DNA of 19,234 bases from a virus, in the UHGV virus genome UHGV-1599518. One strand, 5' to 3'. A program made the translations under genes and the position numbers. The notes beneath the pieces were generated by a model. That model was given only the letters and a program-made list of their open reading frames with translations. It had not been told where the DNA came from and did no database searches. Position 1 is the stretch's first letter. Each line of letters begins with the position of its first letter. Positions 239 to 19,234 of this stretch are shown here, piece after piece.

Positions 239-240
239 GA

Positions 241-1451: not shown

Positions 1452-1465
1452 CGGTACATTCCTTC

Positions 1466-1496
1466 CAAAAAGTAAGGCGTCCGTAGACGCCTTACT
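1466..1496 (-). terminator. Rho-independent terminator downstream of the SSB gene
   Basis: On the minus strand, 15 nt after the SSB stop: perfect 11-bp stem AGTAAGGCGTC / GACGCCTTACT with loop TACG, followed by TTTTG. Confidence 0.55.
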
Positions 1497-1511
1497 GGTC
1501 ACGTAATGGGA

Positions 1512-2540: not shown

Positions 2541-2657
2541 GTGTTTCTCCTTGTTGTGATTTGGCCGATGGCGCTATGCGCGTTGGGCTTTCGTTCATTC
2601 GTGGCTCTTTCGAGCTGTTAAATGATAGATCAGTACTTACTTATTATCTATCAAAAA

Positions 2658-3089: not shown

Positions 3090-3122
3090 TCTAATAGGTT
3101 CCTACTTATAAAATCTGTATCA

Positions 3123-3131
3123 ATTATATCA
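3123..3131 (-). promoter_or_regulatory. candidate extended -10 promoter (TGATATAAT) for the minus-strand replication operon
   Basis: Minus-strand TGATATAAT matches TGnTATAAT exactly, ~35 nt upstream of the 2658..3089 start codon. No good -35. Confidence 0.3.
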
Positions 3132-3297
3132 AACAGAGAATGGGTTTATGGCGTCATGTCAACTTTGTTCAGGGGAAAATATTGAGATCACCGAAGATAA
3201 TTAGTTGTCTTATTTTGGTAAGCTGTGCTGACCATCTTTAGGTCACATACATGAGATGGATGGGGGTGTGGCATGAACGGATGAAATTCAGTCGCCG

Positions 3298-3326
3298 TTG
3301 ACAGATGTCAACACTGTGAATAGAAT
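3298..3326 (+). promoter_or_regulatory. sigma70-like promoter with palindromic -35
   Basis: TTGACA (3298..3303), 17-bp spacer, TAGAAT (3321..3326), then GGAGG and ATG at 3344. The -35 lies in the palindrome TTGACAgaTGTCAA, a possible operator. Confidence 0.5.
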
Positions 3327-3343
3327 ACTATTATCGGAGGCGA

Positions 3344-3568
3344 ATGAAGCAACATCCGAATAAGCATATTCAAGCAGCCATTGACTATGCATTAAGTAAA
3401 GGCTGGATCTGGGTAGCAGCTGGTGGTGCTGCACATTGTTTTTGCAGACTGCGATGCGGTAATCCAGAAGGTGAACACAAAACTCACCAAATGAGCGTAT
3501 GGTCGACTCCGGGTAATCCCGAAAACCATGCCAAACAGATCAAACGAATGGTTGATCGTTGTAAATGA
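3344..3568 (+). CDS. small Cys/His-rich protein (74 aa), possible HicA-like fold
   Basis: ATG 3344 after GGAGG. The pattern GW-x7-GxxHxF ... P ... IKRMV loosely matches the HicA/YcfA toxin family layout (from memory); four Cys and several His could equally mean a zinc-binding protein. Confidence 0.6.
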   Translation: MKQHPNKHIQAAIDYALSKGWIWVAAGGAAHCFCRLRCGNPEGEHKTHQMSVWSTPGNPENHAKQIKRMVDRCK

Positions 3569-3572
3569 TTTC

Positions 3573-3594
3573 AAGGCGGCATTAGCCGCCTTTT
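3573..3594 (+). terminator. attenuator-like hairpin between the two genes of the module
   Basis: 8-bp GC-rich stem AAGGCGGC / GCCGCCTT with loop ATTA, followed by TT-GCAG; the U-tract is short, so at most partial termination. Confidence 0.3.
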
Positions 3595-3628
3595 GCAGAA
3601 ACTGTCCAACTATCTTCAAAGGAAAACT

Positions 3629-4192
3629 ATGGCGCTTTATAACTTCACTCTGACGCTCTCAGGCGTATCGTATGAGACGGAAGGACTGGAAGACGCGCTG
3701 TACCAAAACGGCTGTGACGATGCGCTAATTTGCGCATATGGAAACTCCGTCTATGTAGAATTTGACCGCGAAGCACAATCACTTGATGCAGCTATCGCAT
3801 CTGCGGTCGACAATATTGAATCAGCCGGTATCGGTGCAATTGTTGAATCCGTCGACTCGGCTCTTGTGGGCTTAAGCGATATCGCGGAACTGACAGACCT
3901 GTCTCGCCAGGCAGTGGCGTTGCTCAAAGACGGTAAGCGCGGAAGCGGCGACTTCCCTTGCCCTGTACAACGCATAAAAGGCCAGTCTCCTCTCTGGGAT
4001 TGGGCTGATGTGGCTGAATGGCTCATGAATAACGGACGACTTAAAGAGGGCGATCAAATTGTCCAAAATGCCCGAACTTTGAGTAAATGGAATCTGGCGC
4101 TTCGAAACAGCGTCTCGAAAGATTTCAACGAAATAGAGCAAATTGCGGAGAAACTGATTAAACGCCGCAAAGATATTGCGAAATGCGCATAA
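3629..4192 (+). CDS. DNA-binding protein with central helix-turn-helix (candidate antitoxin/regulator)
   Basis: ATG 3629 with SD AAGGA 5 nt upstream (the track start at 3593 is TTG and overlaps the hairpin). N-terminal ~90-aa domain, HTH-like segment IAELTDLSRQAVALLKDGKRG, then a basic C-terminal extension. Confidence 0.65.
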   Translation: MALYNFTLTLSGVSYETEGLEDALYQNGCDDALICAYGNSVYVEFDREAQSLDAAIASAVDNIESAGIGAIVESVDSALVGLSDIAELTDLSRQAVALLKDGKRGSGDFPCPVQRIKGQSPLWDWADVAEWLMNNGRLKEGDQIVQNARTLSKWNLALRNSVSKDFNEIEQIAEKLIKRRKDIAKCA

Positions 4193-4193
4193 T

Positions 4194-4226
4194 GATGCCC
4201 GCCAATTGGCGGGCATCTGTTCTCTG
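4194..4226 (+). terminator. Rho-independent terminator (perfect 24-bp palindrome)
   Basis: GATGCCCGCCAA|TTGGCGGGCATC immediately after the stop codon, followed by TGTTCTCTG. Confidence 0.5.
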
Positions 4227-4308
4227 TAAAGGTGTCTGGCATCGTCTGGTTCGTTAACGTTTACTAAACCAATGGTGACAAAAATTAGTTATCTTTGAAA
4301 AATAAAGG

Positions 4309-4521
4309 TTGCATGAAAAGAAGGGGTATGCGTTAATAGCATCGTTGGTTTGCAAGACAGACCTTATGTAAGCAGTTTTAGTAAAGCAGTCTCAGTTCAG
4401 TGTTATCTTCTGATTTCCCTTCTTCGTGAGTCTCCTCCTTAAGTGCCTAAGTAAGTCCCAATCTATACAGATCAAATTCTCGCCGCACTATGTGGCTCAC
4501 AAAATTAAGAAGGTAATATCT
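4309..4521 (+). promoter_or_regulatory. cspA-type promoter (TTGCAT-17-GTTAAT with upstream AT-rich UP-like element) and long 5' UTR
   Basis: TTGCAT at 4309..4314 and GTTAAT at 4332..4337; ~180-nt leader with segments resembling the E. coli cspA leader (cold-box-like TTGCAAGACAGACC, AAGTAAGTCCCAATC; from memory). Confidence 0.55.
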
Positions 4522-4737
4522 ATGTCTAATAAAATGACTGGTTTAGTAAAATGGTTTAACTCTGATAAAGGCTTTGGCTTTATTTCTCCTGCTGATGGCA
4601 GTAAAGATGTTTTTGTACATTTTTCGGCAATTCAGAGTAATAATTTCCGCACTTTGGAAGAAGGCCAGCAGGTCGAATTCTCTATCGAGAATGGGGCTAA
4701 AGGCCCAGCAGCAGCAAATGTCGTTGCTCTAAGCTGA
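4522..4737 (+). CDS. cold-shock protein, CspA family
   Basis: [38 protein letters not shown]...[10 protein letters not shown] contains the RNP1/RNP2 motifs of CspA-family proteins. The ORF-track ORF starts upstream at 4426; the conserved start is the ATG at 4522. Confidence 0.95.
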
Positions 4738-5012
4738 TTCAACGCTGATGATCCTCATTTCTACAATAACGAAGACGGTGTAAGCCTGAGTGGATAGATT
4801 TGTAGGATTGTACAAGTTGAATAAATTAGCATGGTAAGGCCATGCTAATTAAATCGACACAACGGCCAGTTTATTCCATAAAAGTGAATTGCCCATTGTG
4901 GCGAAATGCGGGGTTGCCGCATGAATAGTCAAAGGCAGAAGCTAACTGCCGGCATGGCAAAACAAAGTGCGTAAGAGGAGTGACTTCCTCAACAAGCGCC
5001 ATAATTCTTTAT

Positions 5013-5035
5013 AAACCCGCCAACAGGCGGGTTTT
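5013..5035. terminator. bidirectional Rho-independent terminator between the convergent csp and dnaE-like genes
   Basis: Stem AAACCCGCC / GGCGGGTTT with loop AACA, flanked by T-runs on both strands. Confidence 0.6.
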
Positions 5036-5040
5036 CTTTA

Positions 5041-8000
5041 TTACTTATTTATTGTCTCCGCGATATCAGCCAGAATGGCCTCCAGTCGCTCTCCTTCTTC
5101 CGGTCGGAAGTACAGGATATTCGGGTTAAATCCGTAGAAGACGGTTGCATCAAGCTCTGGGAAGTACTCCTTACAACCAATCAGATCTGATGGTTTACTC
5201 TTATTGTTAAATAGTGCGGTTGAACGACTACCACACGTCAAAATGTAGGTTGGTCGTACAAGATTAATTTCTTCCCGCATAAAGTCTGTGAACTGGCCTA
5301 TCTCGTCTTTGGTATAGTCTTTCTCTTTGTCCTTAACCTTCTTACAAACACCCGTGACATAAAGATCGCCCATGCGCAGATCTCCAACTGTCAGTAGTTT
5401 TGCCTTAAAGTCGTCGTATCCGTTCTCCATGAAGTAGCCGGTACGAGCGTCATTGCCGTTCGCATTGTCCAGAATGATCATGATTTTGGGTTTAATACCA
5501 ATAGTCGGGCGTATCAACTCCTCACCCAAGCCCATTTCAGCCGCCATACGTGTCATGAGTACGTTGATTTCGGCAGAACGCTTAGGATTCATTTCGAACG
5601 GACGTGATGCTTTAACAGCGTCAATGATGAGATTGCCCATCAGCTCAGCCTGGTCGCGCAGTCGTTCAGGATCAGTTGCTGGCAGACTGCCTGGCTCAAT
5701 TGACGCAAAAGCCCCTACTTTATGAAGCGACTCGCGTACACGACTGTTACATGCACGCTTCTCGACCGCTTCATCGAATTGTGCCACTGACTCGAATTTG
5801 CCACCAACTTTCTCACGCGCACGCATAATTGCCTGACAACCATTTTCAGAACAGCCTTTCACAGCAGAGAATGGCGCATACAGTGCCTGACTGCCGTCTT
5901 CGAGTGTGCGGATCTCAATTCGGTTAGATGACACATTAACGTCTGGTGGCAATACGCGAATGCCATAGGTCAGCGCATCCTTCACCAGCCCCTGATGCTT
6001 ATCCTCGCCCAGAATGGTGAGCGCAGCTGCGAAGAACTCAGCAGGGTAGTGCGTCTTTAGCCACATAGACTGATAACTGATTAAAGAATAAGCAACGGAG
6101 TGTGATTTATTGAACTGATAGGCTCCGTTTTTCTCAAATGCAGTCCATATCTCTTTTGCCTTCGTCTCAGACAGACCTGGATGTGACGTTGTAACGCGCA
6201 CAACTGGCATTGGCAGCTTCACTCCATGCTCCAACGCCTCTTCAACTGTCCTCAGAGTACCGTCCTCGCATTTAAAATGTTCTGCGCGATGAATCCGTTG
6301 TATTGCGCCATTTTCAAGCTCTACGTCGATCCACCCAGCTTGAGCCTGAATGACAAATTTCTCACCCATGCTCCTCATCTTTTCCATGTTCTTCTTACCG
6401 ATTGCTGAACGCACACCATCCGCCTCGGCCATTGTGAAACCAGCAAGAAGCCTTGTTGCGTTCATCGTTTGTTCCTGATAGAGAATCACTCCATTTGTTT
6501 CAGAGGTCAGTTCATCCAAGACAGGATGTAGTGATGTAGGCGTCATAAATCCTTTCGCAACGGAAACATAGTCATCCAACATGCCGGATTGAATCGGTCC
6601 CGGTCGGAAGAGGGCGGTAGTTGCGACAACGGTTTTGAAACTCATTGGCTCGATGCCACCGCCCAGATCTTTAAGCAGCTTACGCATGGGGCCGGACTCC
6701 AGCTGGAATACGCCCTGCGTGTACCCTGCAGCGAACCCATCCAGAACCTTGCGATCGTCCAGTGGGATAGCGTCGAGATTGATGTCTTCACCGGTACTCT
6801 CTTTGATGTAGCGTTTCGCGCTATCCAGAAGATCGAGTGTTGCCAGACCGAGAACGTCCAACTTAATCAGCCCCATCGCCTCGCAGTAACGTTTATCGAA
6901 CGCAATACATCGAGCATTGCCACGCAGCTCGACGGGCGTGCGCTCTACTAATGGAACGCCAGCGACGATCATCCCCGCAGCGTGACGACCAAAACCACGC
7001 ATCAGGCTTTGCAGCTTACACGCCGCTTTGAACGCTTCCGGGTTTTTCGTGGCGTATTTGTCCAGGCTGGCCAGTTGCTCGCGCAGCTCTTCCAGAGACA
7101 GGCTGTCGTCCTCCATATTCTTGAACTCTTTGGATACCGCCATATCCGCAGCATCGACACCGTAAATACGTGCAGTGTCACGCAGCGCAGATGCCGCGCC
7201 CAGATAGGTGAAGTTCGGAATGCCTGCAACGTAATCTTCGCCGTAGCGTTCATTCAGATACTCGATCACCTCATGGCGACGTGCCTGGCTGAAGTCCAAG
7301 TCCGCATCCGGCAAGTCGAGACGCTCAGGGTTGATGAAACGCTCAAACAGAAGACCGTGACGGATTGGGTCGACGTTGGTTATGCCTATGCACCACGCCA
7401 CCAGAGAACCGGCAGAGGAACCACGACCAGGCCCGACAGGAATGCCAGTTTCACGGCTGTGATTCATCAGATCGCGTACCATCAGGAAGTAACCACAGAA
7501 TCCCAGGCGAGTCAGCGTGTCCATTTCGTACTTTAGCCGCTCAACATAAACCCTGTTCTCAGAAGCAGGTGGTGTGTATCCAAACTCTTTTGTGGTAAGA
7601 CGTTTACGCAGCCCTGCAACAGCCAGTTTCATCAGCGTTGCAGGTTCGTCGTCTGCCATCTTGGGCAGTGCTGGTGGCAATTCATGCCAGCGCCATGTGC
7701 AGGCATCGATAATGGTATCCTGCGTTGTTGAGGCCATTGCAGCTGTTACCGGCACATCCATGCGAACGGAGAAGGCTTTAAGCGCCTCAAGGAGATGGCG
7801 GCGACCATTGACGGCGTTATCTCGCTGGTGGGGGATACGCAGACGATGCGGCTGGTCGATTTTGATGTTGTTCGTAACCATGTGCGCAATGTCTTTAATG
7901 TCTGCATCGTCGATCGATTCGTAATAAGCGGGATAGAACGCCACTGGCTCTATTTTCAATGCGCTGGCGACTTTCATCGCCCGGACGTTAATCTGGTCGT

Positions 8001-8559
8001 AGAATGGGGTAGGGTGCGGATAAACCACACTATAGAAGTTGTCTTTTCCACCCGCTGTAATCAGTGTGCTTATGATTTTTGCAAAATCGTTGCGTTGGAA
8101 CACGCTACCGATGTCGGAAGTAAGCAGGATGATGTTGCCTTTGGCATATGTAGAAACCAACTGTTCGAGCGAGAGACGCGGTACAAAGTAGAACTGTTCT
8201 CGTGTGTTGGCCGCCGTCATTAGTTCGCAGATGTCGCGATATCCTTGCTCATTTTTAATTAGAGCGGTAAACGAGTAGTTACGTCCCCGCTCTAATGATT
8301 CCATACATCTCATAGATTCTTTAGCAAGTTTAGCCCGGTGCTCGTATGTGGGATCATCAACAATGTTTAGTTTCACACCACAAATAACCGCCATGTCGTC
8401 ACCAGCGGCACGTTGTAGTGGAATAACGCTCGCAATATTCATGCTATCTGCTGAAATTACAGCGGTGTAGCCAGCTTCTCTGGCAATCTTCACCGCGTTT
8501 TCTGCTTTTAGAGCCGACTCCCCAAGTGAGAAGTCAGTTCGAACCATCAGTGCCTTCAT
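5041..8559 (-). CDS. dnaE: DNA polymerase III alpha subunit-like (DnaE-type C-family polymerase) with a C-terminal UDG-like domain
   Basis: 1172 aa. Contains [59 protein letters not shown] and [29 protein letters not shown], the DnaE palm/fingers signatures. ATG 8559 with SD AAAGG. Confidence 0.9.
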   Translation of the reverse strand: [1172 protein letters not shown]

Positions 8560-8737
8560 GTGTTTTTACCTTTCTGGTTTTTTTGATTTTGTCATTGGGG
8601 AAGCCTACGAACTTCCCATGCATCGAAATCGCAACTTCTTTTGCTGATTGGTGACAATCGGGCTTGTCTGGACACACCAGACAAGCCTTACCAGTTTCAG
8701 AAGCAGCGATAAGAGAGCCGAAACATCCTTTACGCAC
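8534..8737 (-). CDS. questionable small Cys-rich ORF (67 aa) in the dnaE leader
   Basis: GTG start 2 nt after the upstream stop, no SD, overlaps the dnaE start by 26 nt. Encodes C-x13-CxxC-x5-C, but the CxxC region coincides with a perfect 11-bp palindrome, so this may be structured leader RNA rather than coding. Confidence 0.2.
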   Translation of the reverse strand: MRKGCFGSLIAASETGKACLVCPDKPDCHQSAKEVAISMHGKFVGFPNDKIKKTRKVKTHEGTDGSN

Positions 8738-8739
8738 GA

Positions 8740-9975
8740 TTAACCAAATATTTTTTGAACAACTTCACGAGCCGCTTGTGCAGAAGCTGAAGGGAGTTTG
8801 TTAATGAAAGAACGCTCAATACCTGTCACAAAGTCGCCTCGCATCATTCCAATCTTGGCCGACAACAAAAGTTCACGAGGGCCAATTGGCTGACTGATAA
8901 GGTGTTCTTCGTATCCATCGCGAACGATACCGGCAAACTTAACCATCTTTTCTGCGTATTCATCCACGATACCGGCATTTATCAACATGTTGATCTCTGC
9001 CTCTTTGCTCATGTATTTCACATTCGAAACGATGCCAAAACGCGAAAAGTTCGCGGCGTTCTGGATGTTTGTACCCTGGTACAAGCCGGTTTCATCACCA
9101 GATCCGTTCGTGTTGCCAGTGCCAATGAAAGCAAACCGTTCATGCGGAGTAATGCGACGCCATTCTGGAGTCGCCTCTTTGATGACCAACGCTTCACCTT
9201 CCAGCACTGGCTGATACACGCCAAGAATCTGTGGAAACGCAAAGTCGTATTCATCCGCGAGGTAAACCCAGCCATGCTTCATTGCGAGCGCAAGCAAGCC
9301 AGGCTCGAAATACGTAGAGCCATCACGCGCCAGAATTTGTCCCGTAACATGAGCCTCTTCCATTGATGCTGTATGTTGGGCACGGATTAACGGACGATTG
9401 AGCAAAGCACATAGTTGTGTAGGCAATGAAGATTTGCCTGTTCCTGCATGACCCCACAAATAGCCAGGTATGCCAAGTTCAAGCATCATGAAAATGTCTT
9501 TGATCAGTTCGAAGTCGCCATATACGTATCCCTTCTTCACTTCTGGAACGAACTCTGGAAACGGCGTATTGACGTTGACGCTAACCATGAGCGGCGTCCC
9601 ACGTTTTGTTCCGAGTTCTTTCACCGTTACATTTAGCAGTTCGTGAGCTGCGACCAGATCTGTCTTGTACTCAACTGTGCCTGTGTAGCCTGGGCTACTG
9701 GTCACGCCAGATGATTTGGCCATTTCGCTTTTTTGCTCGGCACGTTTAGCTTGAATTGCATCAAGTGCCTTTTTCGATAGCGTTGGCTCATCTGGAAACT
9801 GTGTTGTGTACATTTTCAGTACGGTGTCAGGATCGGCATCTTTTACTGACTCAGGAATGCCCTCGCAATTACCATTGGCTACATGGGACTTAAAATAGTG
9901 AAATGATTTTCCGCACCACTTGCAAACAAGGTAATCAGAAGGATTTTTTTCATTTTGCAGTGCAGTAGTAGTCAT
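8740..9975 (-). CDS. cobS: AAA+ ATPase, CobS/MoxR-like (AAA_5 type)
   Basis: Walker A GHAGTGKS, Walker B WVYLADEYD. N-terminal CKWCGKSFHYFKSHVANGNC looks like a zinc-finger. ATG 9975 with SD AGGA. Confidence 0.8.
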   Translation of the reverse strand: MTTTALQNEKNPSDYLVCKWCGKSFHYFKSHVANGNCEGIPESVKDADPDTVLKMYTTQFPDEPTLSKKALDAIQAKRAEQKSEMAKSSGVTSSPGYTGTVEYKTDLVAAHELLNVTVKELGTKRGTPLMVSVNVNTPFPEFVPEVKKGYVYGDFELIKDIFMMLELGIPGYLWGHAGTGKSSLPTQLCALLNRPLIRAQHTASMEEAHVTGQILARDGSTYFEPGLLALAMKHGWVYLADEYDFAFPQILGVYQPVLEGEALVIKEATPEWRRITPHERFAFIGTGNTNGSGDETGLYQGTNIQNAANFSRFGIVSNVKYMSKEAEINMLINAGIVDEYAEKMVKFAGIVRDGYEEHLISQPIGPRELLLSAKIGMMRGDFVTGIERSFINKLPSASAQAAREVVQKIFG

Positions 9976-10070
9976 GCGTTTTTCCTTTGTTTTCTAATGA
10001 GCGTTCAACTTCTTATATAAATATATCATTATCTATCGTAAGTGGTTACTTATCGTTAAGGCTGTTTTGT

Positions 10071-12179
10071 TCACTTTAAAATGATACGAGATAGTTCAGT
10101 AACTACAGATGAACCAAGACTATCAACGCTCGTTACCAGGGCATGATTTGAGTAAAATCTCTCCGGTGCGTCAGTCATGATGCCAATTGCCATCAAATCA
10201 ATATCAGTCTGCGTTTCAATTTGCTTCGCAACTGAACGCAAATGAGCGTCAAAACCTCTCCCAACAGCCCACGGCGCGCCATCACTCAGAACAAGCATGA
10301 TCTTCCTGTCCTCCATGCGACCGGAAAATAACGATGCAAGGCTGGCTATGCTTTCACCATCCACGTTATTAAGAAGTGGGAATGTGTAGCCTACGCACCC
10401 CATACGTGAGCGAACTTCGCGAGAATTTACCTTTTCATTCCAATTTTTGATGATAGGTAGCATTAAAGATTCAAAGCGAGAGAACTCATACTTGACAGCC
10501 TTAAGTTCTCCTGCCGCCATATGACTACCAAATGTAGTGAAGCCGGTGATAATGTTGGGAACATTTATTCGATCAAGTGCATCGGCGATGGTATATGCAC
10601 TTGCAAGAGCTAGTTTTATCGTTTCGCCACTCATTGAACCCGATAAATCAATCACTTGTTGAACACAGGCGTTAACGGCTTTAGATTCTTCTTTTTTACG
10701 AAACACGCGATCATCATTCATTGTTAATCTGTAGATACTTGAACCATGAATGCGCCCCCGACGCTGGCCAGGTATAAACTGAACTCTGTTTCTGCTTGCT
10801 ATTGCACGTTCCAGGTCTTTTGCCAGCGTCGACGAAACACCTGACGAAAGGTGCTTTTCAATATATTTGTCGAAGAGTTGGTTGCCTTCAGGAACGATGC
10901 GATAACGGCTGATTGGATATCCACCTAAATCAATATCGGAGAATGTTTTAATAAGCCGTTTGATATGGGCTTCTGCCTGATCAATCGAGCCGATGAAGTC
11001 GTATGAGCGATTGTATGGCCTGTATTCGCTTTTCGAGCTTTCTGTTAACTCGCTTTTAATCGTTTCGGATAGCGCATCTTCTGTCATGCCTCCGACTTCA
11101 TCTTCCATGCTATCCAACTCCTCTAAAGCCTCTTCCAGACTCATTTTTGACGGAGTTGGAATGTCTGAAGAGCCGTCTTCTGTCGATTTTCTTTTTTCGT
11201 GGTCAGTGGTAAATGATTCTGACGCCGCGTTATCAGAAGCACCAGAATCTGATACCTCTTTATCATTTTCTGTATCATCGAATATTGTTTCTGATGATTC
11301 AGAATTATCTGAATCATCACTGTCGTTATTATCATGTTTGTGCTTACTGTGTGATTCTGATTTGATAGATTTGTGATTATCTAACGCTGAGGGTGTCTCA
11401 TGATCTTCGTTGTCTTCATTGTTTTCTCCAGAGGCATCCGTCTGGTCAGCGTCTGAAGGATCGGAAGTTTTTCCCGGAGCTGACTCCTTACCTTTGCTTT
11501 CACTTTCAGTGTCTTTGAGGATCTTAGCTATGGTCGCAGCCACCTTTACACAATCCTCGGTGCAAGACATGTTACGCACGGCCACATCGATACCATGTTC
11601 TTTTAATAATGAAATTGGTTTCTCAATGACAGGCCAATATTCATCCATGAAATCTACGAACGGTGCTTGGCCATCCCAGGCTCTTACAACCGGACAGAGA
11701 AAGAAGTTTAGAAAAAGCGCGCGCTGATCTTTGCCACAATAAGCAATAGCCTCTGAAGCCTTTGGTTTAAAGACTTTTTCGATTATAAGGCGCTGAGTTG
11801 CCATCAGATTACGTCTTGTTCCGTTAAAGACCTGACCCATTTTTCGCTCGATGAACACGTCTTCTAAGGCATTCCATAGCGACCAGGAAGGAACGCGTCC
11901 TTTTTCTCTCATTTTGTTGGACACACGAATATCGGTAAACAAAATGTGAGCAACCTCATGATCGAGAAATCCGCGCACAGCATTCATCAATGCCGGTGTT
12001 GCGTTATCCGGGATTGATGGGATGTTTACGAGAATTGGCTCTCCATCATCGTTATAGCGTACATAAGCGTCGTCCCCTCGTTCTGCAACAGGGATGTTTT
12101 TACCTGAAAGGAGAGCGACTACTCGTTTTACACTGTCACGGAAGTCCTGAACCTCTTTGATGGAACGTTTTTTAGACAT
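10071..12179 (-). CDS. cobT: CobT-like protein with C-terminal von Willebrand factor A domain
   Basis: 702 aa. C-terminal MIDAS motif VIDLSGSMSG and a downstream DG motif; a long central Asp/Ser/Glu-rich low-complexity region (roughly residues 220-380). ATG 12179 with SD AGGA. Confidence 0.8.
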   Translation of the reverse strand: MSKKRSIKEVQDFRDSVKRVVALLSGKNIPVAERGDDAYVRYNDDGEPILVNIPSIPDNATPALMNAVRGFLDHEVAHILFTDIRVSNKMREKGRVPSWSLWNALEDVFIERKMGQVFNGTRRNLMATQRLIIEKVFKPKASEAIAYCGKDQRALFLNFFLCPVVRAWDGQAPFVDFMDEYWPVIEKPISLLKEHGIDVAVRNMSCTEDCVKVAATIAKILKDTESESKGKESAPGKTSDPSDADQTDASGENNEDNEDHETPSALDNHKSIKSESHSKHKHDNNDSDDSDNSESSETIFDDTENDKEVSDSGASDNAASESFTTDHEKRKSTEDGSSDIPTPSKMSLEEALEELDSMEDEVGGMTEDALSETIKSELTESSKSEYRPYNRSYDFIGSIDQAEAHIKRLIKTFSDIDLGGYPISRYRIVPEGNQLFDKYIEKHLSSGVSSTLAKDLERAIASRNRVQFIPGQRRGRIHGSSIYRLTMNDDRVFRKKEESKAVNACVQQVIDLSGSMSGETIKLALASAYTIADALDRINVPNIITGFTTFGSHMAAGELKAVKYEFSRFESLMLPIIKNWNEKVNSREVRSRMGCVGYTFPLLNNVDGESIASLASLFSGRMEDRKIMLVLSDGAPWAVGRGFDAHLRSVAKQIETQTDIDLMAIGIMTDAPERFYSNHALVTSVDSLGSSVVTELSRIILK

Positions 12180-12277
12180 GGCTAATCCTTTGTTATGAAA
12201 ACAAATTATTTACTAGTGTGTTTAATGTAGCACTGCGCGAACAGGGAACTAAGCCATTCGCGCAGGGAGAAGAGGGG

Positions 12278-12490
12278 TTAACAGATTCTGACGGCTAAAG
12301 ACCAGGAGCCGGTATTGAGAAGCGTGAAGCGTTTGTTGTTAAGTTCGAATATAAAGCCAGTTGTGTCATTCACACCAACCTGAATCTGCTCATTCGGTAG
12401 ATCGGTGAGGATGTCAGCTACACACTCATCAGCTAATTTCTGTACGTGTCCGATCTCAAGAGCGATTAGGCTGGAAATAGTGGTGTTCAT
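12278..12490 (-). CDS. hypothetical protein (70 aa)
   Basis: ATG start with weak SD, immediately upstream of the cobT-like gene. No motif recognised. Confidence 0.35.
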   Translation of the reverse strand: MNTTISSLIALEIGHVQKLADECVADILTDLPNEQIQVGVNDTTGFIFELNNKRFTLLNTGSWSLAVRIC

Positions 12491-12667
12491 TCAATCAATC
12501 CATTCTAACTTATACTATGGTAAGGAATACTACTAAAATTTGTATCAATACTGAATACATTCATATCATATGCAAGTTGATTTTCTTACCTGTTTTGGGC
12601 TAATTTTTCTCCGTGCAATGGCCTTTAACCGGTCTTTTAAGTGCCTATCGAAAAAAATGATAATAGC

Positions 12668-12710
12668 TTTACAACCCTAACCTTTGATGTAATATCGGTA
12701 AGCACTTACC
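12668..12710 (+). promoter_or_regulatory. candidate promoter with palindromic operator at +1
   Basis: TTTACA (12668..12673), 16-bp spacer, TAATAT (12690..12695), followed by the 14-bp palindrome GGTAAGCACTTACC (12697..12710), about 30 nt upstream of the HTH gene ATG. Confidence 0.4.
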
Positions 12711-12741
12711 AGAGAGAATTGAACGCGCAAAGGTTGTAACC

Positions 12742-13128
12742 ATGTCTGATAACAAGATTGAATTTATAGAAAGTCGCTACGCTGCTTTTATCGCAGGGTT
12801 GATTGAATCCTCACCTATGAGCCAGGCCCAGATAGCCAAAACAATTGGGTATAAAAACGCCAACAACCTTTCTTTAATTAAAAGCGGCAAAATTCCTTTG
12901 CCTATCGATAAGGTTCGTCCGCTGGCGCTGGCACTGGGCATTGAGCCAAGTCGTCTTATGATGATGGTGCTGGAAGAACGCCAACCCGAACTCGCAGCAT
13001 TTTTATACAAAGAAGGCACTGCTCCTCTTAACGAGGACGAAAAACAGGTTCTTGCTGCATATAACGAGCGATTCGGTAAAGAGAAAGGCGCATCACAAAA
13101 GGTTGTTGAGGCCATAAAGTCTCTATGA
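12742..13128 (+). CDS. XRE-family helix-turn-helix transcriptional regulator
   Basis: HTH segment MSQAQIAKTIGYKNANNLSLIKSGKIPLPIDKVRPLALALGIEP. ATG 12742 with SD AAAGG. The 3' end overlaps the convergent integrase gene by 6 nt. Confidence 0.75.
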   Translation: MSDNKIEFIESRYAAFIAGLIESSPMSQAQIAKTIGYKNANNLSLIKSGKIPLPIDKVRPLALALGIEPSRLMMMVLEERQPELAAFLYKEGTAPLNEDEKQVLAAYNERFGKEKGASQKVVEAIKSL

Positions 13129-14226
13129 AAAATTTACACGAATAAGCTCTGTTGATAGACGATCTCCCTTAAATTTGTGGTCAATTTCGTCTAAATCCGG
13201 TTGCTCTACGATTGATGCGATGTACGTCGAGAAACTTTCTAAGGCGTCTCGCATCTCGTCCATATAATCGTGCCGGTCGTAGACCCGATCTATCCCCTCA
13301 AGACTGTGGTTCATGATTTTACGTGATACCTCCTGGCTTATGCCTAATGCTGGGAAGTAACTACGCGCAGTACGGCGCAAATCTCGGGGTGTAAATGGCT
13401 CAAGCTCCATCAGTTCTGGTCGTTCCAGAATACGACGTAATGCCTGGGCTATTGCCACTTTAGACATAGGAAGGTCTTTCCCGATTTTTTTATTCGAAGG
13501 CACGAGCCACTGGCTGTCTTTACCATATTCGAACAACTCTTCAATACAAGTGCGCATTAATGAGCTTAAAGGCAGAGAATGCTCACGGGCAGATTTGTTC
13601 CTCTTGCCTTGATTCCAAACCCCACGCTTAAGATTGAACTCACTTTTTTTAGCCCGCAGTACTTCGTCAGGTCGTCTTGCGGATACAAGACATAGCCTGG
13701 CCGCCCATTTTGTACCAGCACACACATTGAAGTAGTCCCATATATTCCAGAACACCCATACCTCTGCGTCGGTCAGCTTCCGCTCGCGAGGTGTGGGCTT
13801 TGCGCCACCGGCAACTTTGTTAAGTGACATATCGTTTAACGGTGACACGTCTATCATCCCCTGGAAGGCGCACCAGCTAAGGAACTGCTTCATCAGAGAG
13901 AAAACGCGGCGGCCCATAACAATTTTGCCATCCAGTATTAGTGGGTTGACCAGTTGGTTCACCATGAACCTATTAATGTCACTTACTTTTACATCGGCAA
14001 TGTGCGGCAAAACATGTATCAAAATACAATGAACAGCGATCTCTGGCCGACGTCTGGTTATCAGCAGAGATAAGCGAGTGAATAACATGAATGCGTCCGA
14101 GAATCTCATGTCATTGCTGACCTGGGAGATCATAACGGCCTGCATTTGAGATGCTCTTTCGAGATACTCTATCGCCTCTTTTGAGGTGTTCTCCGCAGCG
14201 CGTGCGCTGTCAAAGCTATTTTTCAT
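13123..14226 (-). CDS. int: tyrosine recombinase / phage-type integrase
   Basis: Catalytic-domain blocks LVSARRPDEV (Arg), HSLPL, FTPRDLRRTARSY and NHSLEGIDRVYDRHDY (His...Tyr) match the tyrosine recombinase R-H-R-Y active-site layout. Confidence 0.85.
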   Translation of the reverse strand: MKNSFDSARAAENTSKEAIEYLERASQMQAVMISQVSNDMRFSDAFMLFTRLSLLITRRRPEIAVHCILIHVLPHIADVKVSDINRFMVNQLVNPLILDGKIVMGRRVFSLMKQFLSWCAFQGMIDVSPLNDMSLNKVAGGAKPTPRERKLTDAEVWVFWNIWDYFNVCAGTKWAARLCLVSARRPDEVLRAKKSEFNLKRGVWNQGKRNKSAREHSLPLSSLMRTCIEELFEYGKDSQWLVPSNKKIGKDLPMSKVAIAQALRRILERPELMELEPFTPRDLRRTARSYFPALGISQEVSRKIMNHSLEGIDRVYDRHDYMDEMRDALESFSTYIASIVEQPDLDEIDHKFKGDRLSTELIRVNFS

Positions 14227-14404
14227 ATGACAATCACCGAGTTACGCCGATGCACTGTATAAGTAAACAGTATATTAGGCATAGATTCTTATAGGATCAA
14301 GAGTAAAAGTAACTCATTTTCAGCAATGATTCCATACATAGTAGGTATGGAATCATTTTGACGTTGTTTTTTGAATTTTAAGGGAAATGGGAGTGAGTTT
14401 GGTG

Positions 14405-14432
14405 GGAATAAAAACGGCTCCTGTGAGCCGTT
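14405..14432 (-). terminator. Rho-independent terminator for the glutaredoxin gene
   Basis: Minus strand: stop TGA, then stem AACGGCTC / GAGCCGTT with loop ACAG, followed by TTTATTCCC. Confidence 0.55.
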
Positions 14433-14436
14433 AAAA

Positions 14437-14682
14437 TCAGAGGGTGCTGACGTATGCAGCCAGTTCTGTGTATCCGCCAATCGGCTGGCCATCGATCAGC
14501 ACCTGGGGGATAGTCTCTACCGGTTTACCAACAATTTCACTTAGTTTTTCCTTGTCGATACCGGCAGTGGTGATGTCGATGTACTCATAATCACCGTTGC
14601 CATGTCCCTTTAGTTGCTTCGCCAGCTCGACCGCACGTTTGCAGTATGAGCAGTTATCTCGTCCGTAGATAGTGATCGTCAT
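14437..14682 (-). CDS. glutaredoxin (GrxA/NrdC-like), active site CSYC
   Basis: MTITIYGRDNCSYCKRAVELAK...GKPVETIPQVLIDGQPIGGYTELAAYV closely parallels E. coli glutaredoxin 1 (GKPVETVPQIFIDQQHIGGYTDFAAWV, from memory). CxxC motif is CSYC. Confidence 0.9.
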   Translation of the reverse strand: MTITIYGRDNCSYCKRAVELAKQLKGHGNGDYEYIDITTAGIDKEKLSEIVGKPVETIPQVLIDGQPIGGYTELAAYVSTL

Positions 14683-14855
14683 AACTTAACAAATACCTTT
14701 ATAAATATTGATTCGAACATATCAGACTATACTACAAACAGATTTTTTTGATAAGTATGTAGTAACTTATTGATTGACTAGTAAACAATTGAAGTGATTA
14801 CGACAATAGATTACAGTAAGGATTGCCTTGAAATGTACATTTTATAGAGGTTTTA

Positions 14856-15764
14856 ATGATTGGTAAGTTGTCTGATTCTTTGATTGAAAATAAATACAAC
14901 GAATTTAGAGAAGAAATATCTTTACTTTTTGATTATTTAAATCAGATAAATGATACAACAAAGAAAAATATAAAACGTCTTCTTAAAGAAGTGGAGTATG
15001 CACAGAATCCAGATACTATTATTAATATTAATGAAACTATTAAGATTAAGTGTGGCACAACGTTAGCTCGCCATTTATGTTCAAACCCATATACAGGTTC
15101 AACATTAGAGATAGGTAACAGCGCCATTGATTTAGAAGAAAAGATAAGATTGTGTAATACTTTGAAAAATAAACAATATCAGTGGGTTATTACTGAAGCC
15201 TATGAGTTACTGGAAGACTATATTGAGGCAATATATGTCTATACTGTATGTGTTCGAAATGATTTATGGTCCTCAAGTGATTTTGGTAAGGTTGAAGATG
15301 ATGAAATTGGGAAAAGGGAAGTTTATTACAGATTATTAAAAGCAAAAAGTAACCCATCGAAAAAAATAACTAAAATTTTCAGAAATAAAATACCTGGCTT
15401 CAAAGAGATAGAAACAAACAACAAGATTGGCAAAAACTATCGCTTTAACATCAAGCTAATTGAACTACTAAGACATACAATAGTACACAATAGTGGACGA
15501 TTCAATGATACAGAAAAATTTATAAATAAGGTTTTAGATGAATCTGAAATAAACGGTAAGAAAAGAGTTATTGGAGAAAGAGCTGTTAGAAGTTACATTA
15601 CTAAAGTGCAAGAAGATGATATTGTGATGCTCTTAGAAAGACCATCTGAAATTTTAGGTTCTTTTGGTGGGTATTTTAACAGAGCAAAATTTTTACTAAG
15701 TGATATTTTAGAATACTCACTAATCATTAAAGAAGAACTAAAATCATATCTAGGCAATCATTAA
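14856..15764 (+). CDS. AT-rich hypothetical protein (302 aa) with HEPN-like Rx4H motif; candidate Abi-like RNase
   Basis: ATG 14856 with SD AGAGG 5 nt upstream and its own terminator. By eye ~25-30% G+C against ~50% for neighbours. Lys/Asn/Ile-rich; motif ELLRHTIVHNSG fits the HEPN R-[NHQ]-x3-H signature. Opposite strand to both neighbours. Confidence 0.7.
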   Translation: MIGKLSDSLIENKYNEFREEISLLFDYLNQINDTTKKNIKRLLKEVEYAQNPDTIININETIKIKCGTTLARHLCSNPYTGSTLEIGNSAIDLEEKIRLCNTLKNKQYQWVITEAYELLEDYIEAIYVYTVCVRNDLWSSSDFGKVEDDEIGKREVYYRLLKAKSNPSKKITKIFRNKIPGFKEIETNNKIGKNYRFNIKLIELLRHTIVHNSGRFNDTEKFINKVLDESEINGKKRVIGERAVRSYITKVQEDDIVMLLERPSEILGSFGGYFNRAKFLLSDILEYSLIIKEELKSYLGNH

Positions 15765-15765
15765 C

Positions 15766-15795
15766 AAAAAAGGGGCCGAAGCCCCTTTGGATTTT
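15766..15795. terminator. bidirectional Rho-independent terminator
   Basis: AAAAAA-AGGGGC-CGAA-GCCCCT-TTGGATTTT, with A-run and T-run flanks; serves the AT-rich gene (plus) and the tRNA operon trailer (minus). Confidence 0.65.
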
Positions 15796-15864
15796 GCGCT
15801 TAAAAAAGTGTTGCTAGGATGTTAGCAAGCTATATGGTTAAGAACGTCTGCCGTAATTGTCTAT

Positions 15865-15942
15865 CACAGCGTTGAGCGGTCTGGTTTATGTTAGCGGAGT
15901 CTTAATCGAGTTGATTAAAAGGCCAAACCGCTCAACGCTGTG
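15865..15942. other. long stem-loop element (20-bp stem, one mismatch, 38-nt loop) 2 nt beyond the tRNA-Ser 3' end
   Basis: 5' arm CACAGCGTTGAGCGGTCTGG (15865..15884) pairs with CCAAACCGCTCAACGCTGTG (15923..15942). Strand of any RNA product not determined; the tRNA operon is minus. Confidence 0.4.
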
Positions 15943-15944
15943 TC

Positions 15945-16031
15945 TGGCGGAGAGTAATGGAATCGAACCATCATCGTTTGCACAATGGGACGGTTTTCAA
16001 GACCGCTTGAGCACCATGCTCCCTACTCTCC
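15945..16031 (-). tRNA. tRNA-Ser (anticodon UGA), class II with long variable arm
   Basis: Minus-strand sequence GGAGAGT...ACTCTCC-G-CCA: 7-bp acceptor stem, anticodon stem GCGGT/ACCGT with loop CTTGAAA, 17-nt variable arm, T-arm GATGG-TTCGATT-CCATT, encoded CCA. Manual fold, no tRNAscan run. Confidence 0.85.
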
Positions 16032-16131
16032 AGCTATTGTGATGGTCGGTACTGAACTCCGACACAGGGTTGTAGCAAGCCCCGCAAAGCGCGCACTACT
16101 GTAGTTGCGGCACATCAGCCTGTGCATTCAT

Positions 16132-16216
16132 CACAACGGTAAGATCACTACCTTTCGACCAGTCATTGTGCACATGAACGACGATTAACCGTAATGATAT
16201 TATCGTTGTGTTGTGA
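16132..16216. other. long imperfect inverted-repeat element A (paralogue of element B)
   Basis: 5' arm CACAACGGTAAGATCACTAC versus 3' arm GTAATGATATTATCGTTGTG (3 mismatches/wobbles). Shares the 5' 14-mer TCACAACGGTAAGA with element B. Confidence 0.3.
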
Positions 16217-16261
16217 AGCCAGATGCTTATCTTCTGGTTGCTTCAAAGAGCTGCACTTCCT

Positions 16262-16350
16262 CACAACGGTAAGAGCACTGGTCTGACTCTATCGATTTAC
16301 GGCCTTGTGGGTCAGTATCGCCGATTCGCCCAATGCTCTTACCTGTTGTG
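16262..16350. other. long inverted-repeat element B, abutting the tRNA-Thr 3' end
   Basis: 5' arm CACAACGGTAAGAGCA pairs with 3' arm TGCTCTTACCTGTTGTG (16 bp with one bulged A), enclosing ~56 nt. Ends 1 nt from the tRNA-Thr 3' end. Confidence 0.35.
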
Positions 16351-16351
16351 T

Positions 16352-16427
16352 TGGTGCCGGTTAACGGACTTGAACCGCTGGCCATTCGCTTACAAAGCGA
16401 CTGCTCTACCAACTGAGCTAAACCGGC
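16352..16427 (-). tRNA. tRNA-Thr (anticodon UGU)
   Basis: Minus-strand GCCGGTTTAGCTCAGTTGGTAGAGCAGTCGCTTTGTAAGCGAATGGCCAGCGGTTCAAGTCCGTTAACCGGCACCA: canonical 76-nt cloverleaf, anticodon loop TTTGTAA, T-loop TTCAAGT, encoded CCA. Anticodon stem has one G-A mismatch (27-43). Confidence 0.85.
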
Positions 16428-16431
16428 AATT

Positions 16432-16518
16432 TGGTGGGGAGTGATGGAGTCGAACCACCCGAGTCGCCATGACAGTAGATTTACAGTCTACACCGCTACC
16501 TCTACGGACTAACTCCCC
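16432..16518 (-). tRNA. tRNA-Tyr (anticodon GUA), class II with long variable arm
   Basis: Minus-strand GGGGAGT...ACTCCCC-A-CCA: anticodon arm GTAGA-CTGTAAA-TCTAC, T-arm GGTGG-TTCGACT-CCATC, long variable arm. Separated from tRNA-Thr by 4 nt. Confidence 0.85.
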
Positions 16519-16523
16519 TAAAT

Positions 16524-16561
16524 GGGGTTTGAGGGCCAATGGAACGAAAACGTACGCTAAG
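16524..16561. repeat. 38-bp terminal inverted repeat of a Tn3-family transposon (Tn1000/gamma-delta-like)
   Basis: GGGGTTTGAGGGCCAATGGAACGAAAACGTACGCTAAG has the GGGG outer end and TGGAACGAAAAC core typical of Tn3-family IRs (from memory). The tnpA stop codon lies inside it. Confidence 0.85.
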
Positions 16562-19234
16562 AAGTTAATTCATTGTTTAAATTGAAATTTAGTTCTCTCA
16601 GTTCCCCCTTCAAAATATCCTCCGGTAGCGTAAACGTATAATGCCCCAGCATATTGATATGCCCGTGCATCAGTGGGGACAACCGGGCGATATCTTCAAC
16701 CCCGATTTCTTCTCCATTACTGCGTATCCAGCTCAGGGCTTCCTGCATATAAAGTGTGTTCCACAGTACCACTGCGTTAGTGACCAGGCCCAGTGCCCCC
16801 AGCTGATCTTCCTGACCTTCACGATAGCGCTTTCTGATCTCACCGCGCTGCCCGTAGCAGATCGCCCTCGCCACAGCATGGCGGCCTTCCCCCCGGTTTA
16901 GCTGCGTCAGGATCCGCCGACGATAATCCTCATCATCAATATAATTAAGAAGGTACAGCGTCTTGTTGACGCGCCCCACTTCCATGATCGCCTGTGCCAG
17001 CCCTGATGGGCGCGAGCTTTTCAGCAAAGAGCGAATGAGTTCTGAAGCATGAATGGTGCCCAGTTTCAGCGAACCGGCGGTTCGCATCATCTCATCCCAC
17101 TGATCCTCGGCTTTCGACAGATCGGCACAACCACGTGCCAGTTCGTCCAGTGCACCGTAATTTGCCGATTTATCCACTCGCCAGAATACCGCTTCACCGG
17201 CATCGGCAAGCCGGGGGGAAAACTGGTATCCCAGCAGCCAGAAGAGGCCAAAAATAATGTCGCTGGTACCGGCTGTGTCTGTCATGATCTCAACCGGATT
17301 CAGCCCTGTCTGCTGCTCCAGAAGGCCTTCCAGCACAAAAATGGAATCTCGTAATGTGCCGGGGACAACGATGCCGTGGAATCCAGAGTACTGATCAGAG
17401 ACGAAGTTGTACCAGGTGATGCCACGTCCGGAACCAAAATATTTTCTGTTAGGTCCTGAATTGACGGTTTTCACCGGCGTGACAAAGCGCATGCCATCAG
17501 CTGAAGCCACTTCGCCACCACCCCAGCGGCCAGCAAGCTCCAGTGTGGACTGAAAATCAACCAGGCGGGCATTGGCGCTGACCAGCGTTTCTGCCCGGAG
17601 GTAATTCTGTTTTACCCAGCTAAGCCGGTGGCGCGTCAGCGCCGGTATATTGTGCTTTATCAGCGGTTCCAGCCCGATATTGCAGGCCTCTGCCATCAGG
17701 ACCGCGCACAGGCTGATGTGCAGATCCTGTGCCCGGGCCCCGGATTCACTGACATGCGTAAACTCACGTGTAAATCCCGTTCTGGCATCTATTTCAAGCA
17801 ACAGTTCCGTCAAATCTACTGGCGGGAGTAGCAGCCTTACCCGACTGTTGAGACGATGCAACGATGGTGGCTCCTCCAGTTTCTCCAGGCTGCTGATAGT
17901 CAGGGAAGGATGTTTACCGTCATGGCAAATATGAACCTCCGCATTTCCTTCAAAGCGGGATGCGACGGTTTTCCAGGTTTCATCTAGCTGGACCGCCAAC
18001 TGTTGCACGCCTTTATGTCCATCAGTGGGATGTCCCAGCGCCCGGCAAACGGGGACCCGCTGAGCCTGCCATTCTTCCCCCTGCAACAGCTTCTCGCGGG
18101 GATTTCCCCAGCGATCGCTGTTTTCGAGCCAGATGTCCCTTCGACGTAGTGCATCCTGAAGGCGCTCCAGCAGACAAAGCGAGTAACCGGCACGCTGTAT
18201 CCGGCCCTCCGCATCGTATACCAGGCGTTTCCAGGGGCCGGTAATAATATGTTCAGGCGCATTGTCCAGGATGCGCTTTTTCGAGCCGTTCAGTTCGGTC
18301 AGATAATGAATGGCGGACAACGTATGTTCTCCGGCTGGCGCTGCCTGGAAATGCAGGTCGCGCAATACCGCCGGAAGAAAGCGCTTTACCCGCCCGTACT
18401 GCTCCACCATTTCGTCATGGAAATTGTTGTTCTGAGGCCGGGCCAGCTCATTTACCTTGCTGACGGATTCTGCCAGCCTGCTTTTCGGTATGCTGTTGAA
18501 TATGGTCTCCCTCAGTTCAGCATCGTCAGCCTGTTCATCCAGCAACAATGAACATGCCCGCGCCAATATTAGCGCAGCACGATCAAGATCTTTAAGCGTC
18601 CTGAGCCGTTTTTTCTGCCCCGTTTTCTTCGCCGCACGAGTGATATCCAGTATCAGCATATCGAGCACATCAACGGCCTCATCCAGCGCCGCAGTCTCCT
18701 GCGCTTTAACGAATGCTGTGAGTACGGCCAGTTTTCTCTGCTGTGGCATTCGCGCGATATATTTTACCGACGCCATGCCTGCGTAACGGGCCAAATTACG
18801 CAGTTGTATAGCAGGCAGACCGGTAAAATTCAGTCGGGAAAATTCCAGGTTTCGCAGCCGGATATATCGCTCCAGCGCTTCGGTAAATGCCGGGCCGCTG
18901 ACGGTGACCGGTCCCTTTTTCAGTTGCTCCAGCGGTGAAGTACGCTGCCCCTCAGGAATGTCCAGAAGCTCCGTCACGCGGGCGGTCTGCCAGCTGTCCG
19001 GCAACGCGGCCAGTTTCTTCCACAGCCGCTGATTTGCCCGTTCGCGTATTTCACTGACGAGACGTACAAGTGTGGTTGCTCCGGGCAGCAGGACCTTATT
19101 CTGAAGCAGCCACGCGGTGGCAAAATCAAACATAAGGCCGGGTCGCTCATTACTGAGCCATGCGCGGGTGTACAGCAGGCGCTTCAGGCGGAAAGACCAG
19201 GGGAAATCGCCAAATTCATGGTAACCGTAATATT
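16557..19234 (-). CDS. tnpA: Tn3-family transposase TnpA (C-terminal ~890 aa; N-terminus beyond the right window edge)
   Basis: ORF-track 858-aa ORF 16557..19133, and the frame stays open upstream to the window edge (…YHEFGDFPWSFRLKRLLYTRAWLSNERPGL before the track's Met). Blocks such as GGGEVASADGMRFVTPV, GITWYNFVSDQYSGFHGIVVPGTLRDSIFVLEGLLEQ and LYLLNYIDDEDYRRRILTQLNRGE are characteristic of Tn3-family TnpA. Confidence 0.95.
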   Translation of the reverse strand, partial: YYGYHEFGDFPWSFRLKRLLYTRAWLSNERPGLMFDFATAWLLQNKVLLPGATTLVRLVSEIRERANQRLWKKLAALPDSWQTARVTELLDIPEGQRTSPLEQLKKGPVTVSGPAFTEALERYIRLRNLEFSRLNFTGLPAIQLRNLARYAGMASVKYIARMPQQRKLAVLTAFVKAQETAALDEAVDVLDMLILDITRAAKKTGQKKRLRTLKDLDRAALILARACSLLLDEQADDAELRETIFNSIPKSRLAESVSKVNELARPQNNNFHDEMVEQYGRVKRFLPAVLRDLHFQAAPAGEHTLSAIHYLTELNGSKKRILDNAPEHIITGPWKRLVYDAEGRIQRAGYSLCLLERLQDALRRRDIWLENSDRWGNPREKLLQGEEWQAQRVPVCRALGHPTDGHKGVQQLAVQLDETWKTVASRFEGNAEVHICHDGKHPSLTISSLEKLEEPPSLHRLNSRVRLLLPPVDLTELLLEIDARTGFTREFTHVSESGARAQDLHISLCAVLMAEACNIGLEPLIKHNIPALTRHRLSWVKQNYLRAETLVSANARLVDFQSTLELAGRWGGGEVASADGMRFVTPVKTVNSGPNRKYFGSGRGITWYNFVSDQYSGFHGIVVPGTLRDSIFVLEGLLEQQTGLNPVEIMTDTAGTSDIIFGLFWLLGYQFSPRLADAGEAVFWRVDKSANYGALDELARGCADLSKAEDQWDEMMRTAGSLKLGTIHASELIRSLLKSSRPSGLAQAIMEVGRVNKTLYLLNYIDDEDYRRRILTQLNRGEGRHAVARAICYGQRGEIRKRYREGQEDQLGALGLVTNAVVLWNTLYMQEALSWIRSNGEEIGVEDIARLSPLMHGHINMLGHYTFTLPEDILKGELRELNFNLNNELTS

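Follow-up and report, generated by a model that had tools for sequence, protein, structure and literature searches.

The transposase gene tnpA of Tn3 and gamma-delta is transcribed from a promoter within res, which is repressed by the resolvase, and module exchange via recombination at the res site is expected within the Tn3 family. Two members of this family are the nearest counterparts of the element described here, whose end is found in the window (the whole stretch of 19,234 nucleotides of the virus genome UHGV-1599518 that was analysed). Tn1000 (gamma-delta) of plasmid F shares with it the terminal inverted repeat (IR), the first 33 nt of which are the same in both repeats of Tn1000, the position of the tnpA stop codon at the inner edge of the repeat and the 1002-aa length class of the transposase. 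Over the 890 residues that lie in the window the two TnpA proteins are 91.6% identical and the genes 84.4% identical at the nucleotide level. Due to the nucleotide divergence of 15.6% the inserted element is not Tn1000 itself, and it is also unlike Tn1000 in its probable far end, which has a pEC22-type repeat and the remnant of a DUF87/HerA-like gene. The second counterpart is the 7.5-kb Tn1000-like transposon of pEC22 (NC_025058.1). Its two repeats belong to the ATGATGCAAAAAACCACG type, to which the repeat in the window does not belong, and its tnpA is only 77.7% identical to ours at the nucleotide level.

Tn1000 of F (L026, 4191-10171, 5,981 bp) lacks direct repeats of 5 bp at its flanks, as CTTAT is found on the left and ATATA on the right. 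It was rejected as positive control for a 5-bp target duplication because its flanks differ, and the pEC22 transposon, which has a clean duplication with TATAA on both sides, was used instead.

For SSU5-type phage-plasmids, insertions of Tn3-like elements close to tRNA loci have already been published, and as an instance of them the present case is real, tidy and ordinary. In 10.1101/2025.09.12.675607 the blaTEM-carrying Tn3-like transposons of SSU5-group phage-plasmids are described as 'all inserted near tRNA loci'. According to Pfeifer et al. 2022 (PMC9600943), SSU5-like elements have their insertions concentrated at a single locus, which has the DNA ligase gene among its neighbours. The insertion in the window resembles those of both sources in the type of backbone, the transposon family and the neighbourhood of tRNA and DNA ligase genes. 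Judged by the wording of these sources, it differs in that it lies within the tRNA array, in an inter-tRNA spacer of 5 nt, and not beside the array. Three facts are added here, namely that the spacer of tRNA-Asn and tRNA-Tyr is split, that the second junction was recovered and that the element on the SSU5-like host is gamma-delta-like.

The phage-plasmid backbone and the transposon end

Judged by its sequence, the host of the transposon is assigned to the SSU5/pHCM2-like phage-plasmids of E. coli. Two aligned blocks of the backbone are 97.8-100% identical to E. coli plasmids of ~110 kb, and positions 15700-16523 match such plasmids, including pECOH89 and records named 'Escherichia phage CMS-2020a', with 99-100% identity. 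The order of the genes is also that of SSU5/pHCM2-like elements, with DnaE, AAA ATPase, CobT, integrase, glutaredoxin and the tRNAs following each other, and DNA ligase and DnaB further on.

Several other features of this backbone were observed. A full-length cspA thermoregulator (RF01766, 185.7 bits with a gathering score of 78) is located on the plus strand at 4344-4762 and precedes the cold-shock protein gene of the phage-plasmid, which is annotated as cspG in pEcoFMU073332c (L001). The dnaE gene is intact in the window (5041-8559, 1172 aa). In some relatives (dnaE region of L007, L008 and L010) it is split, giving a 787-aa product and an adjacent gene for an HNH_3/NUMOD3 endonuclease, and the RecA-like gene beside the split dnaE bears an intein with a LAGLIDADG domain. 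At 14358-14456 the window is devoid of the YafO-family toxin module which pEcoFMU073332c carries between integrase and glutaredoxin (L001, 17573-18756); other relatives have different small genes in that gap.

The terminal IR comprises 38 bp (16524-16561), and its plus strand reads GGGGTTTGAGGGCCAATGGAACGAAAACGTACGCTAAG. The length of ~38 bp, the start with GGGG and the finish with TAAG are those of the Tn1000/gamma-delta subgroup. The outer 18 nt occur once in the window, while 0.02 occurrences are expected by chance. From the outer end of the IR to the edge of the window (16524-19234, 2,711 bp) the sequence agrees at 100% of its positions with Tn3-family tnpA genes that many enterobacterial plasmids carry, pYE854 among them. 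The match to a transposon end is far beyond chance.

The 3' portion of tnpA is encoded on the minus strand (16557-19234, 892 codons including the stop) and continues past the window edge, beyond which ~110 N-terminal residues fall. Its stop codon TAG at 16557-16559 corresponds to positions 34-36 of the IR, and the frame, which reads toward the tRNA genes, is open from there to the window edge at 19234. The product matches the Pfam domain DDE_Tnp_Tn3 (PF01526, E = 7.5e-151) and reaches 1033 bits with the NCBIfam equivalog transpos_Tn3 (NF033527), for which the cut-off is 500. The allele is of the pYE854 type, with 100% nucleotide identity over the stretch in the window, and its product is WP_012291341.1 (1002 aa). 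The gene thus encodes a Tn3-type DDE transposase of ~1000 aa that ends within the IR. Because of the identity of the 33 nt of the IR and the 91.6% amino acid identity of TnpA to Tn1000 of F, we assign the inserted element to the Tn1000-like members of the Tn3 family. The first-pass annotation had placed the outer GGGG at 16524, 5 nt from tRNA-Tyr, and had tnpA on the strand of the tRNAs with its end inside the IR. ARAGORN and the reading of the sequence confirm these coordinates exactly to the base; that structural description of the feature is correct and the interpretation is supported.

In other plasmids 100% identical copies of this tnpA module are joined past tnpR to varying cargo, in line with the module exchange expected for the family. 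The identical allele is linked to blaTEM-1 in L018, to a restriction-modification module in L019 and to an ArsA-like gene in L004, and in copies elsewhere which are 100% identical over the 2,711 bp a divergent recombinase gene is located directly upstream of tnpA. We also looked for a complete copy of the inserted element in L003, L004, L018 and L019, and no matching inverted partner repeat was present within the stretches fetched. L004 and L018 are both SSU5-like plasmids in which the 100% identical allele (L004, 8001-11042; L018, 12001-15042) occupies another site, beside a 5'-3' exonuclease gene. The copy in L018 is also joined to a multi-resistance region.

The tRNA array and the two junctions

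On the minus strand tnpA is followed by its stop codon, 38 nt, the three genes for tRNA-Tyr, tRNA-Thr and tRNA-Ser, and a terminator. The gene for tRNA-Tyr (gta; 87 nt, 16432-16518), which is now the first tRNA gene past the transposon, was found by ARAGORN and by Rfam (tRNA, 41.6 bits with a gathering score of 29); its variable arm is long and its CCA end is encoded, and it is located 4 nt upstream of tRNA-Thr (tgt; 16352-16427, ARAGORN; Rfam tRNA, 69 bits). The last gene of the array, tRNA-Ser (tga; 15945-16031), was identified by ARAGORN, and in Rfam it only appears below the threshold, as tRNA-Sec with 44.8 bits vs 47. Between Thr and Ser lies a minus-strand spacer of 320 nt (16032-16351), the length of which varies in relatives (224 nt in L005, 8 nt in L013). 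No convincing reading frame or RNA family was found in this spacer by small-ORF scans and Rfam. Positions 16038-16279 are ~96% identical to a segment of the P1-like phages RCS47 and JL22 which is annotated as plp/upl. Downstream of tRNA-Ser an intrinsic-terminator-like hairpin, AAAGGGGCTTCGGCCCCTTT followed by a T run, is located on the minus strand at 15769-15788. It is the probable end of the tRNA transcription unit, and the site is also present in the transposon-free relative L001.

The five nucleotides TAAAT (16519-16523) adjoin the 5' end of tRNA-Tyr. Wherever a relative is uninterrupted and has tRNA-Tyr, TAAAT runs directly into a same-strand gene for tRNA-Asn (gtt), as in L001 with tRNA-Tyr at 20733-20819, TAAAT at 20820-20824 and tRNA-Asn at 20825-20899. 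The sequence CTCCCCTAAATTGGCGATGG is found in 8 of the 16 loci compared and additionally in L022 and L024, and the empty site reads CTCCCC-TAAAT-TGGCGATGG in L001, L002, L005, L007 to L010, L014, L022 and L024. The alignment of L021 to the window stops at 16526, where it has passed the spacer and runs 3 bases into tRNA-Asn. TAAAT is therefore the complete spacer between tRNA-Asn and tRNA-Tyr. The native array has the order Asn-5nt-Tyr-4nt-Thr-(8 to 320 nt)-Ser and a single terminator-like hairpin after it, all on one strand and with spacers too short for a promoter or terminator, as in a polycistronic array. In L006, L011, L012 and L013 tRNA-Tyr is absent and tRNA-Asn lies 2 nt from tRNA-Thr, so the tRNA content of the array varies between relatives.

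Since TAAAT is the whole Asn/Tyr spacer in the empty-site relatives, the transposon did not displace a promoter next to tRNA-Tyr but split the array Asn-Tyr-Thr-Ser, with all four tRNA genes left whole. The first-pass annotation had assumed that the native tRNA promoter was displaced or now sits inside the transposon, and had suggested to reconstruct it from uninterrupted homologues. This assumption does not hold, as that comparison recovered tRNA-Asn as the neighbour of tRNA-Tyr and no promoter next to it. The promoter of the array would so lie upstream of tRNA-Asn, past the far side of the transposon and not within it.

The insertion appears to be recent, because relatives with an empty site hardly differ from the window. 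L024 (SRR28172335) differs by 1 mismatch in 11,996 nt, L021 (GCA_012856835.1) by 4 mismatches and L022 (SRR10271466) by 5 mismatches, both in 16,526 nt. The exact junction of the window is absent from PLSDB, the complete RefSeq E. coli genomes, IMG/VR, the GTDB species representatives and the metagenome collection. A look-up with the neighbouring protein of 302 aa returned only relatives that have the empty site or are differently interrupted. Only through protein look-up was the junction reached in a second contig, L023 (Ga0168709_100286 of the JGI metagenome 3300029219), which is 100.000% identical to window positions 1-16608, includes the junction and breaks off 85 nt into the transposon. 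Because L023 reproduces the junction, it is not a one-off artefact.

For the second junction a query was predicted from the assumption of a 5-bp duplication, consisting of the IR end, TAAAT and the 3' end of tRNA-Asn. A single match was obtained in the metagenome collection (ERZ772884 NODE-1031, here L015), whereas the predicted junction is absent from IMG/VR and the genome collection, and none of the collections searched contained a contig that spans the whole inserted element. L015 reads ...TTGGCCCTCAAACCCC-TAAAT-TGGCGATGG..., with TAAAT at 931-935 and tRNA-Asn at 936-1010, and the IR end before TAAAT reads ...CCCTCAAACCCC, finishing with CCCC. Over 2,045 nt past the junction the backbone of L015 shows 100% identity with L024 and 99.95% with L021, and exactly these two are the closest relatives of the window itself; of the more distant ones, L013 is the nearest to the window as well as to L015. 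TAAAT is thus present in a single copy at the empty site and in two copies at the insertion, i.e. at 16519-16523 of the window and at 931-935 of L015, on separate contigs. Because the backbone of L015 matches the closest relatives of the window, it is a strong inference that the window (together with L023) and L015 show both ends of a single insertion that duplicated TAAAT. That TAAAT is a target duplication had been proposed in the first-pass annotation, to be refuted by the lack of a matching repeat at the other end. By proxy this test was passed, for L015, which is of the same plasmid lineage, carries TAAAT at that end.

Short-read assemblies tend to break at repeats, and it could be argued that the junction is an assembly chimera of a repeated transposon end and the tRNA region, all the more as the window ends within tnpA and both L023 and L015 break within the transposon. 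The break is, however, located exactly at the terminal GGGG of the IR and at the edge of an intact 5-nt spacer, L023, which has 0 mismatches to the window over 16,608 nt, contains the junction too, and the complementary junction with the same 5 nt is found in a different assembly. A precise target duplication would not arise from a chimera, and we regard this explanation as so improbable that it is nearly negligible.

The IR of L015 (GGGGTTTGAGGGCCAATGATGCAAAAAACCACGCTAAG) is in inverted orientation and has the same outer 18 nt as the IR of the window, with 30 of 38 positions shared overall, and it belongs to the pEC22 subtype. The 880 bp inside the repeat (L015 51-931 including the IR) are 100% identical to the DUF87-gene end of the pEC22 transposon. 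As the IR of L015 is of the pEC22 type and the tnpA of pEC22 is only 77.7% identical to that of the window at the nucleotide level, the two ends point to a hybrid element or to a remodelling after the insertion or, with lower probability, to two separate events. In the other PLSDB records listed, the DUF87-end fragment breaks at the same point, and in pA18-1 it is located beside an ISKpn26 transposase gene. For these reasons the interior of the element may hold insertion sequences. Resistance genes were found neither in the window portion of the element nor in L015.

If there were two events, a gamma-delta-type and a pEC22-type element would have inserted independently at the same TAAAT. In that case TAAAT would be a genuine hot spot, and a duplication in the window would not be proved by L015. 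The IRs of the window and L015 do differ at 8 of 38 positions, each fits both ends of its own subtype (Tn1000 of F and pEC22, respectively), and three other mobile-element insertions are known within ~190 nt. But the window and L015 share their backbone lineage to within 0-4 mismatches and their junctions are exactly complementary in orientation. Hybrid elements are, moreover, routine, as seen from the differing cargo to which the tnpA module of the window is joined past tnpR elsewhere. Two independent insertions are therefore considered very unlikely, and the reading of the window and L015 as the ends of a single insertion is preferred.

Predicted transcription of the separated tRNA genes

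Between 17500 and 15789 no terminator-like site was found on the minus strand; the first one is the hairpin at 15788-15769, after tRNA-Ser. For this reason a tnpA transcript should run through all three tRNA genes. In minimum-energy folds with a transposon-derived leader of 20-100 nt tRNA-Tyr retains both its acceptor stem and its T stem, from which processing by RNase P is predicted to be possible. A misfolding of tRNA-Tyr with the transposon-derived leader by CCCC-ATTTA-GGGG pairing was considered and rejected, since the minimum-energy folds retain the acceptor stem.

A scan for sigma-70-like promoters revealed 0 sites at 15700-17500 vs 2.0 expected in shuffled sequence. With permissive settings the best candidates, both at the transposon end and in the native region, have 8/12 consensus matches. 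Upstream of tRNA-Asn in L001 (20000-22000) no sigma-70-like site passed the scanner either, and a permissive scan of L024 gave only 8/12 matches, which are located at least 515 nt upstream of tRNA-Asn. Natively the array may be served by a phage-specific promoter or by one further upstream in the same-strand gene block. As the genes upstream are all on this strand, a long phage operon may end with the array.

Given the repression of the tnpA promoter in res by the resolvase in Tn3 and gamma-delta, expression at a low level by read-through is the likeliest outcome, and weak read-through from tnpA is most likely the remaining source of transcription for Tyr-Thr-Ser. A promoter that faces outward in the last ~100 bp of the transposon, i.e. 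in the 3' end of tnpA and the IR, could alternatively drive these tRNA genes at a useful or higher level, which would mean a rewiring of the array and not a damping. Two weak minus-strand candidates just inside the IR, TTGAAG-16-TAAATT with the -10 element ending at 16586 and CTGAGA-18-AACAAT with the -10 element ending at 16572, could serve as such a promoter, and no terminator separates them from the tRNA genes. Both have, however, only the 8/12 matches mentioned and fail the standard scanner, which found no site at 15700-17500, and a full-text search for 'outward-facing promoter' with Tn3-family terms gave no match. In the literature on outward promoters or polarity of Tn1000/Tn3 ends nothing relevant was found. 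We consider such a promoter unlikely and prefer weak read-through from tnpA.

The course of events was very probably as follows. A Tn1000 (gamma-delta)-like element would recently have entered an SSU5/pHCM2-like phage-plasmid at the AT-only spacer of 5 nt between tRNA-Asn and tRNA-Tyr, duplicating TAAAT and leaving the four tRNA genes intact. Tyr-Thr-Ser would thereby have been severed from tRNA-Asn and from any promoter of the array upstream of it, and their transcription would now depend solely on weak internal promoters or on weak read-through that starts at the tnpA promoter under resolvase repression, after which RNase P and the 3'-end enzymes of the host would process the tRNAs normally. 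E. coli encodes its own tRNAs for these anticodons. A lower expression of the phage tRNAs, which duplicate those of the host, would probably be tolerated, because the host has its own and because tRNA-Tyr is missing altogether in L006 and L011 to L013. Taken together, a recent insertion in the spacer with target duplication, a split array and a presumed weak read-through expression of Tyr-Thr-Ser is the explanation in which we place high confidence.

Mobile elements at the tRNA locus

Elements of the Tn3 family prefer AT-rich targets. The Thr-Tyr-Asn block (247 bp) has a G+C content of 53% and contains four pentamers that consist of A and T only, two of which overlap the Asn/Tyr spacer and one of which is found at the Tyr/Thr spacer. 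The insertion at TAAAT fits the preference of the family, since all-A/T pentamers are few in the block and two of them are at this spacer. An insertion in a spacer is also the sole kind that destroys nothing in the array.

Other mobile elements were observed nearby. L007 (GCA_019584725.1), in which a related phage-plasmid backbone is part of a 4.9-Mb contig, contains a different Tn3-family element with the Tn1721/Tn21-type repeat GGGGAGCCCGCAGAATTCGGAAAAAATCGTACGCTAAG (11923-11960), which starts 181 nt upstream of tRNA-Asn and has a tetracycline-resistance-like cargo of the MFS/TetR type. L022 (Logan SRR10271466_78) begins with an IS3 end (1-27) which is the same as in the IS3 copies of plasmid F and lies a few tens of nucleotides upstream of tRNA-Asn. 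The plasmid of L022 is 99.97% identical to the window, and its Asn-TAAAT-Tyr site is intact.

Altogether four mobile-element events, namely the insertion of the window, the end in L015, Tn1721 in L007 and IS3 in L022, are located within ~190 nt. The insertion site belongs to a plastic locus where mobile elements gather, in agreement with the published surveys. It is tempting to generalize that AT-only spacers in the tRNA array of SSU5-like phage-plasmids are a preferred, gene-sparing landing site of Tn3 elements, and that an insertion with the tnpA end next to the tRNAs would couple the tRNA supply of the phage to a resolvase-repressed transposase promoter; we regard this generalization as very unlikely.

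The locus is a case, at base-pair resolution, of a phage-plasmid that would have gained a transposon without the loss of a gene, which has little weight beyond bookkeeping. For annotation it means that tRNA-Asn should be looked for beyond the transposon and that Tyr-Thr-Ser should not be taken as a unit with a promoter of its own. It is one more example of how, as already reported, mobile elements cluster at the tRNA/DNA-ligase locus in SSU5-like phage-plasmids; the latter serve as vehicles for resistance genes. If the cargo of the transposon beyond the window includes resistance or defence genes, the phage-plasmid could spread them by infection.
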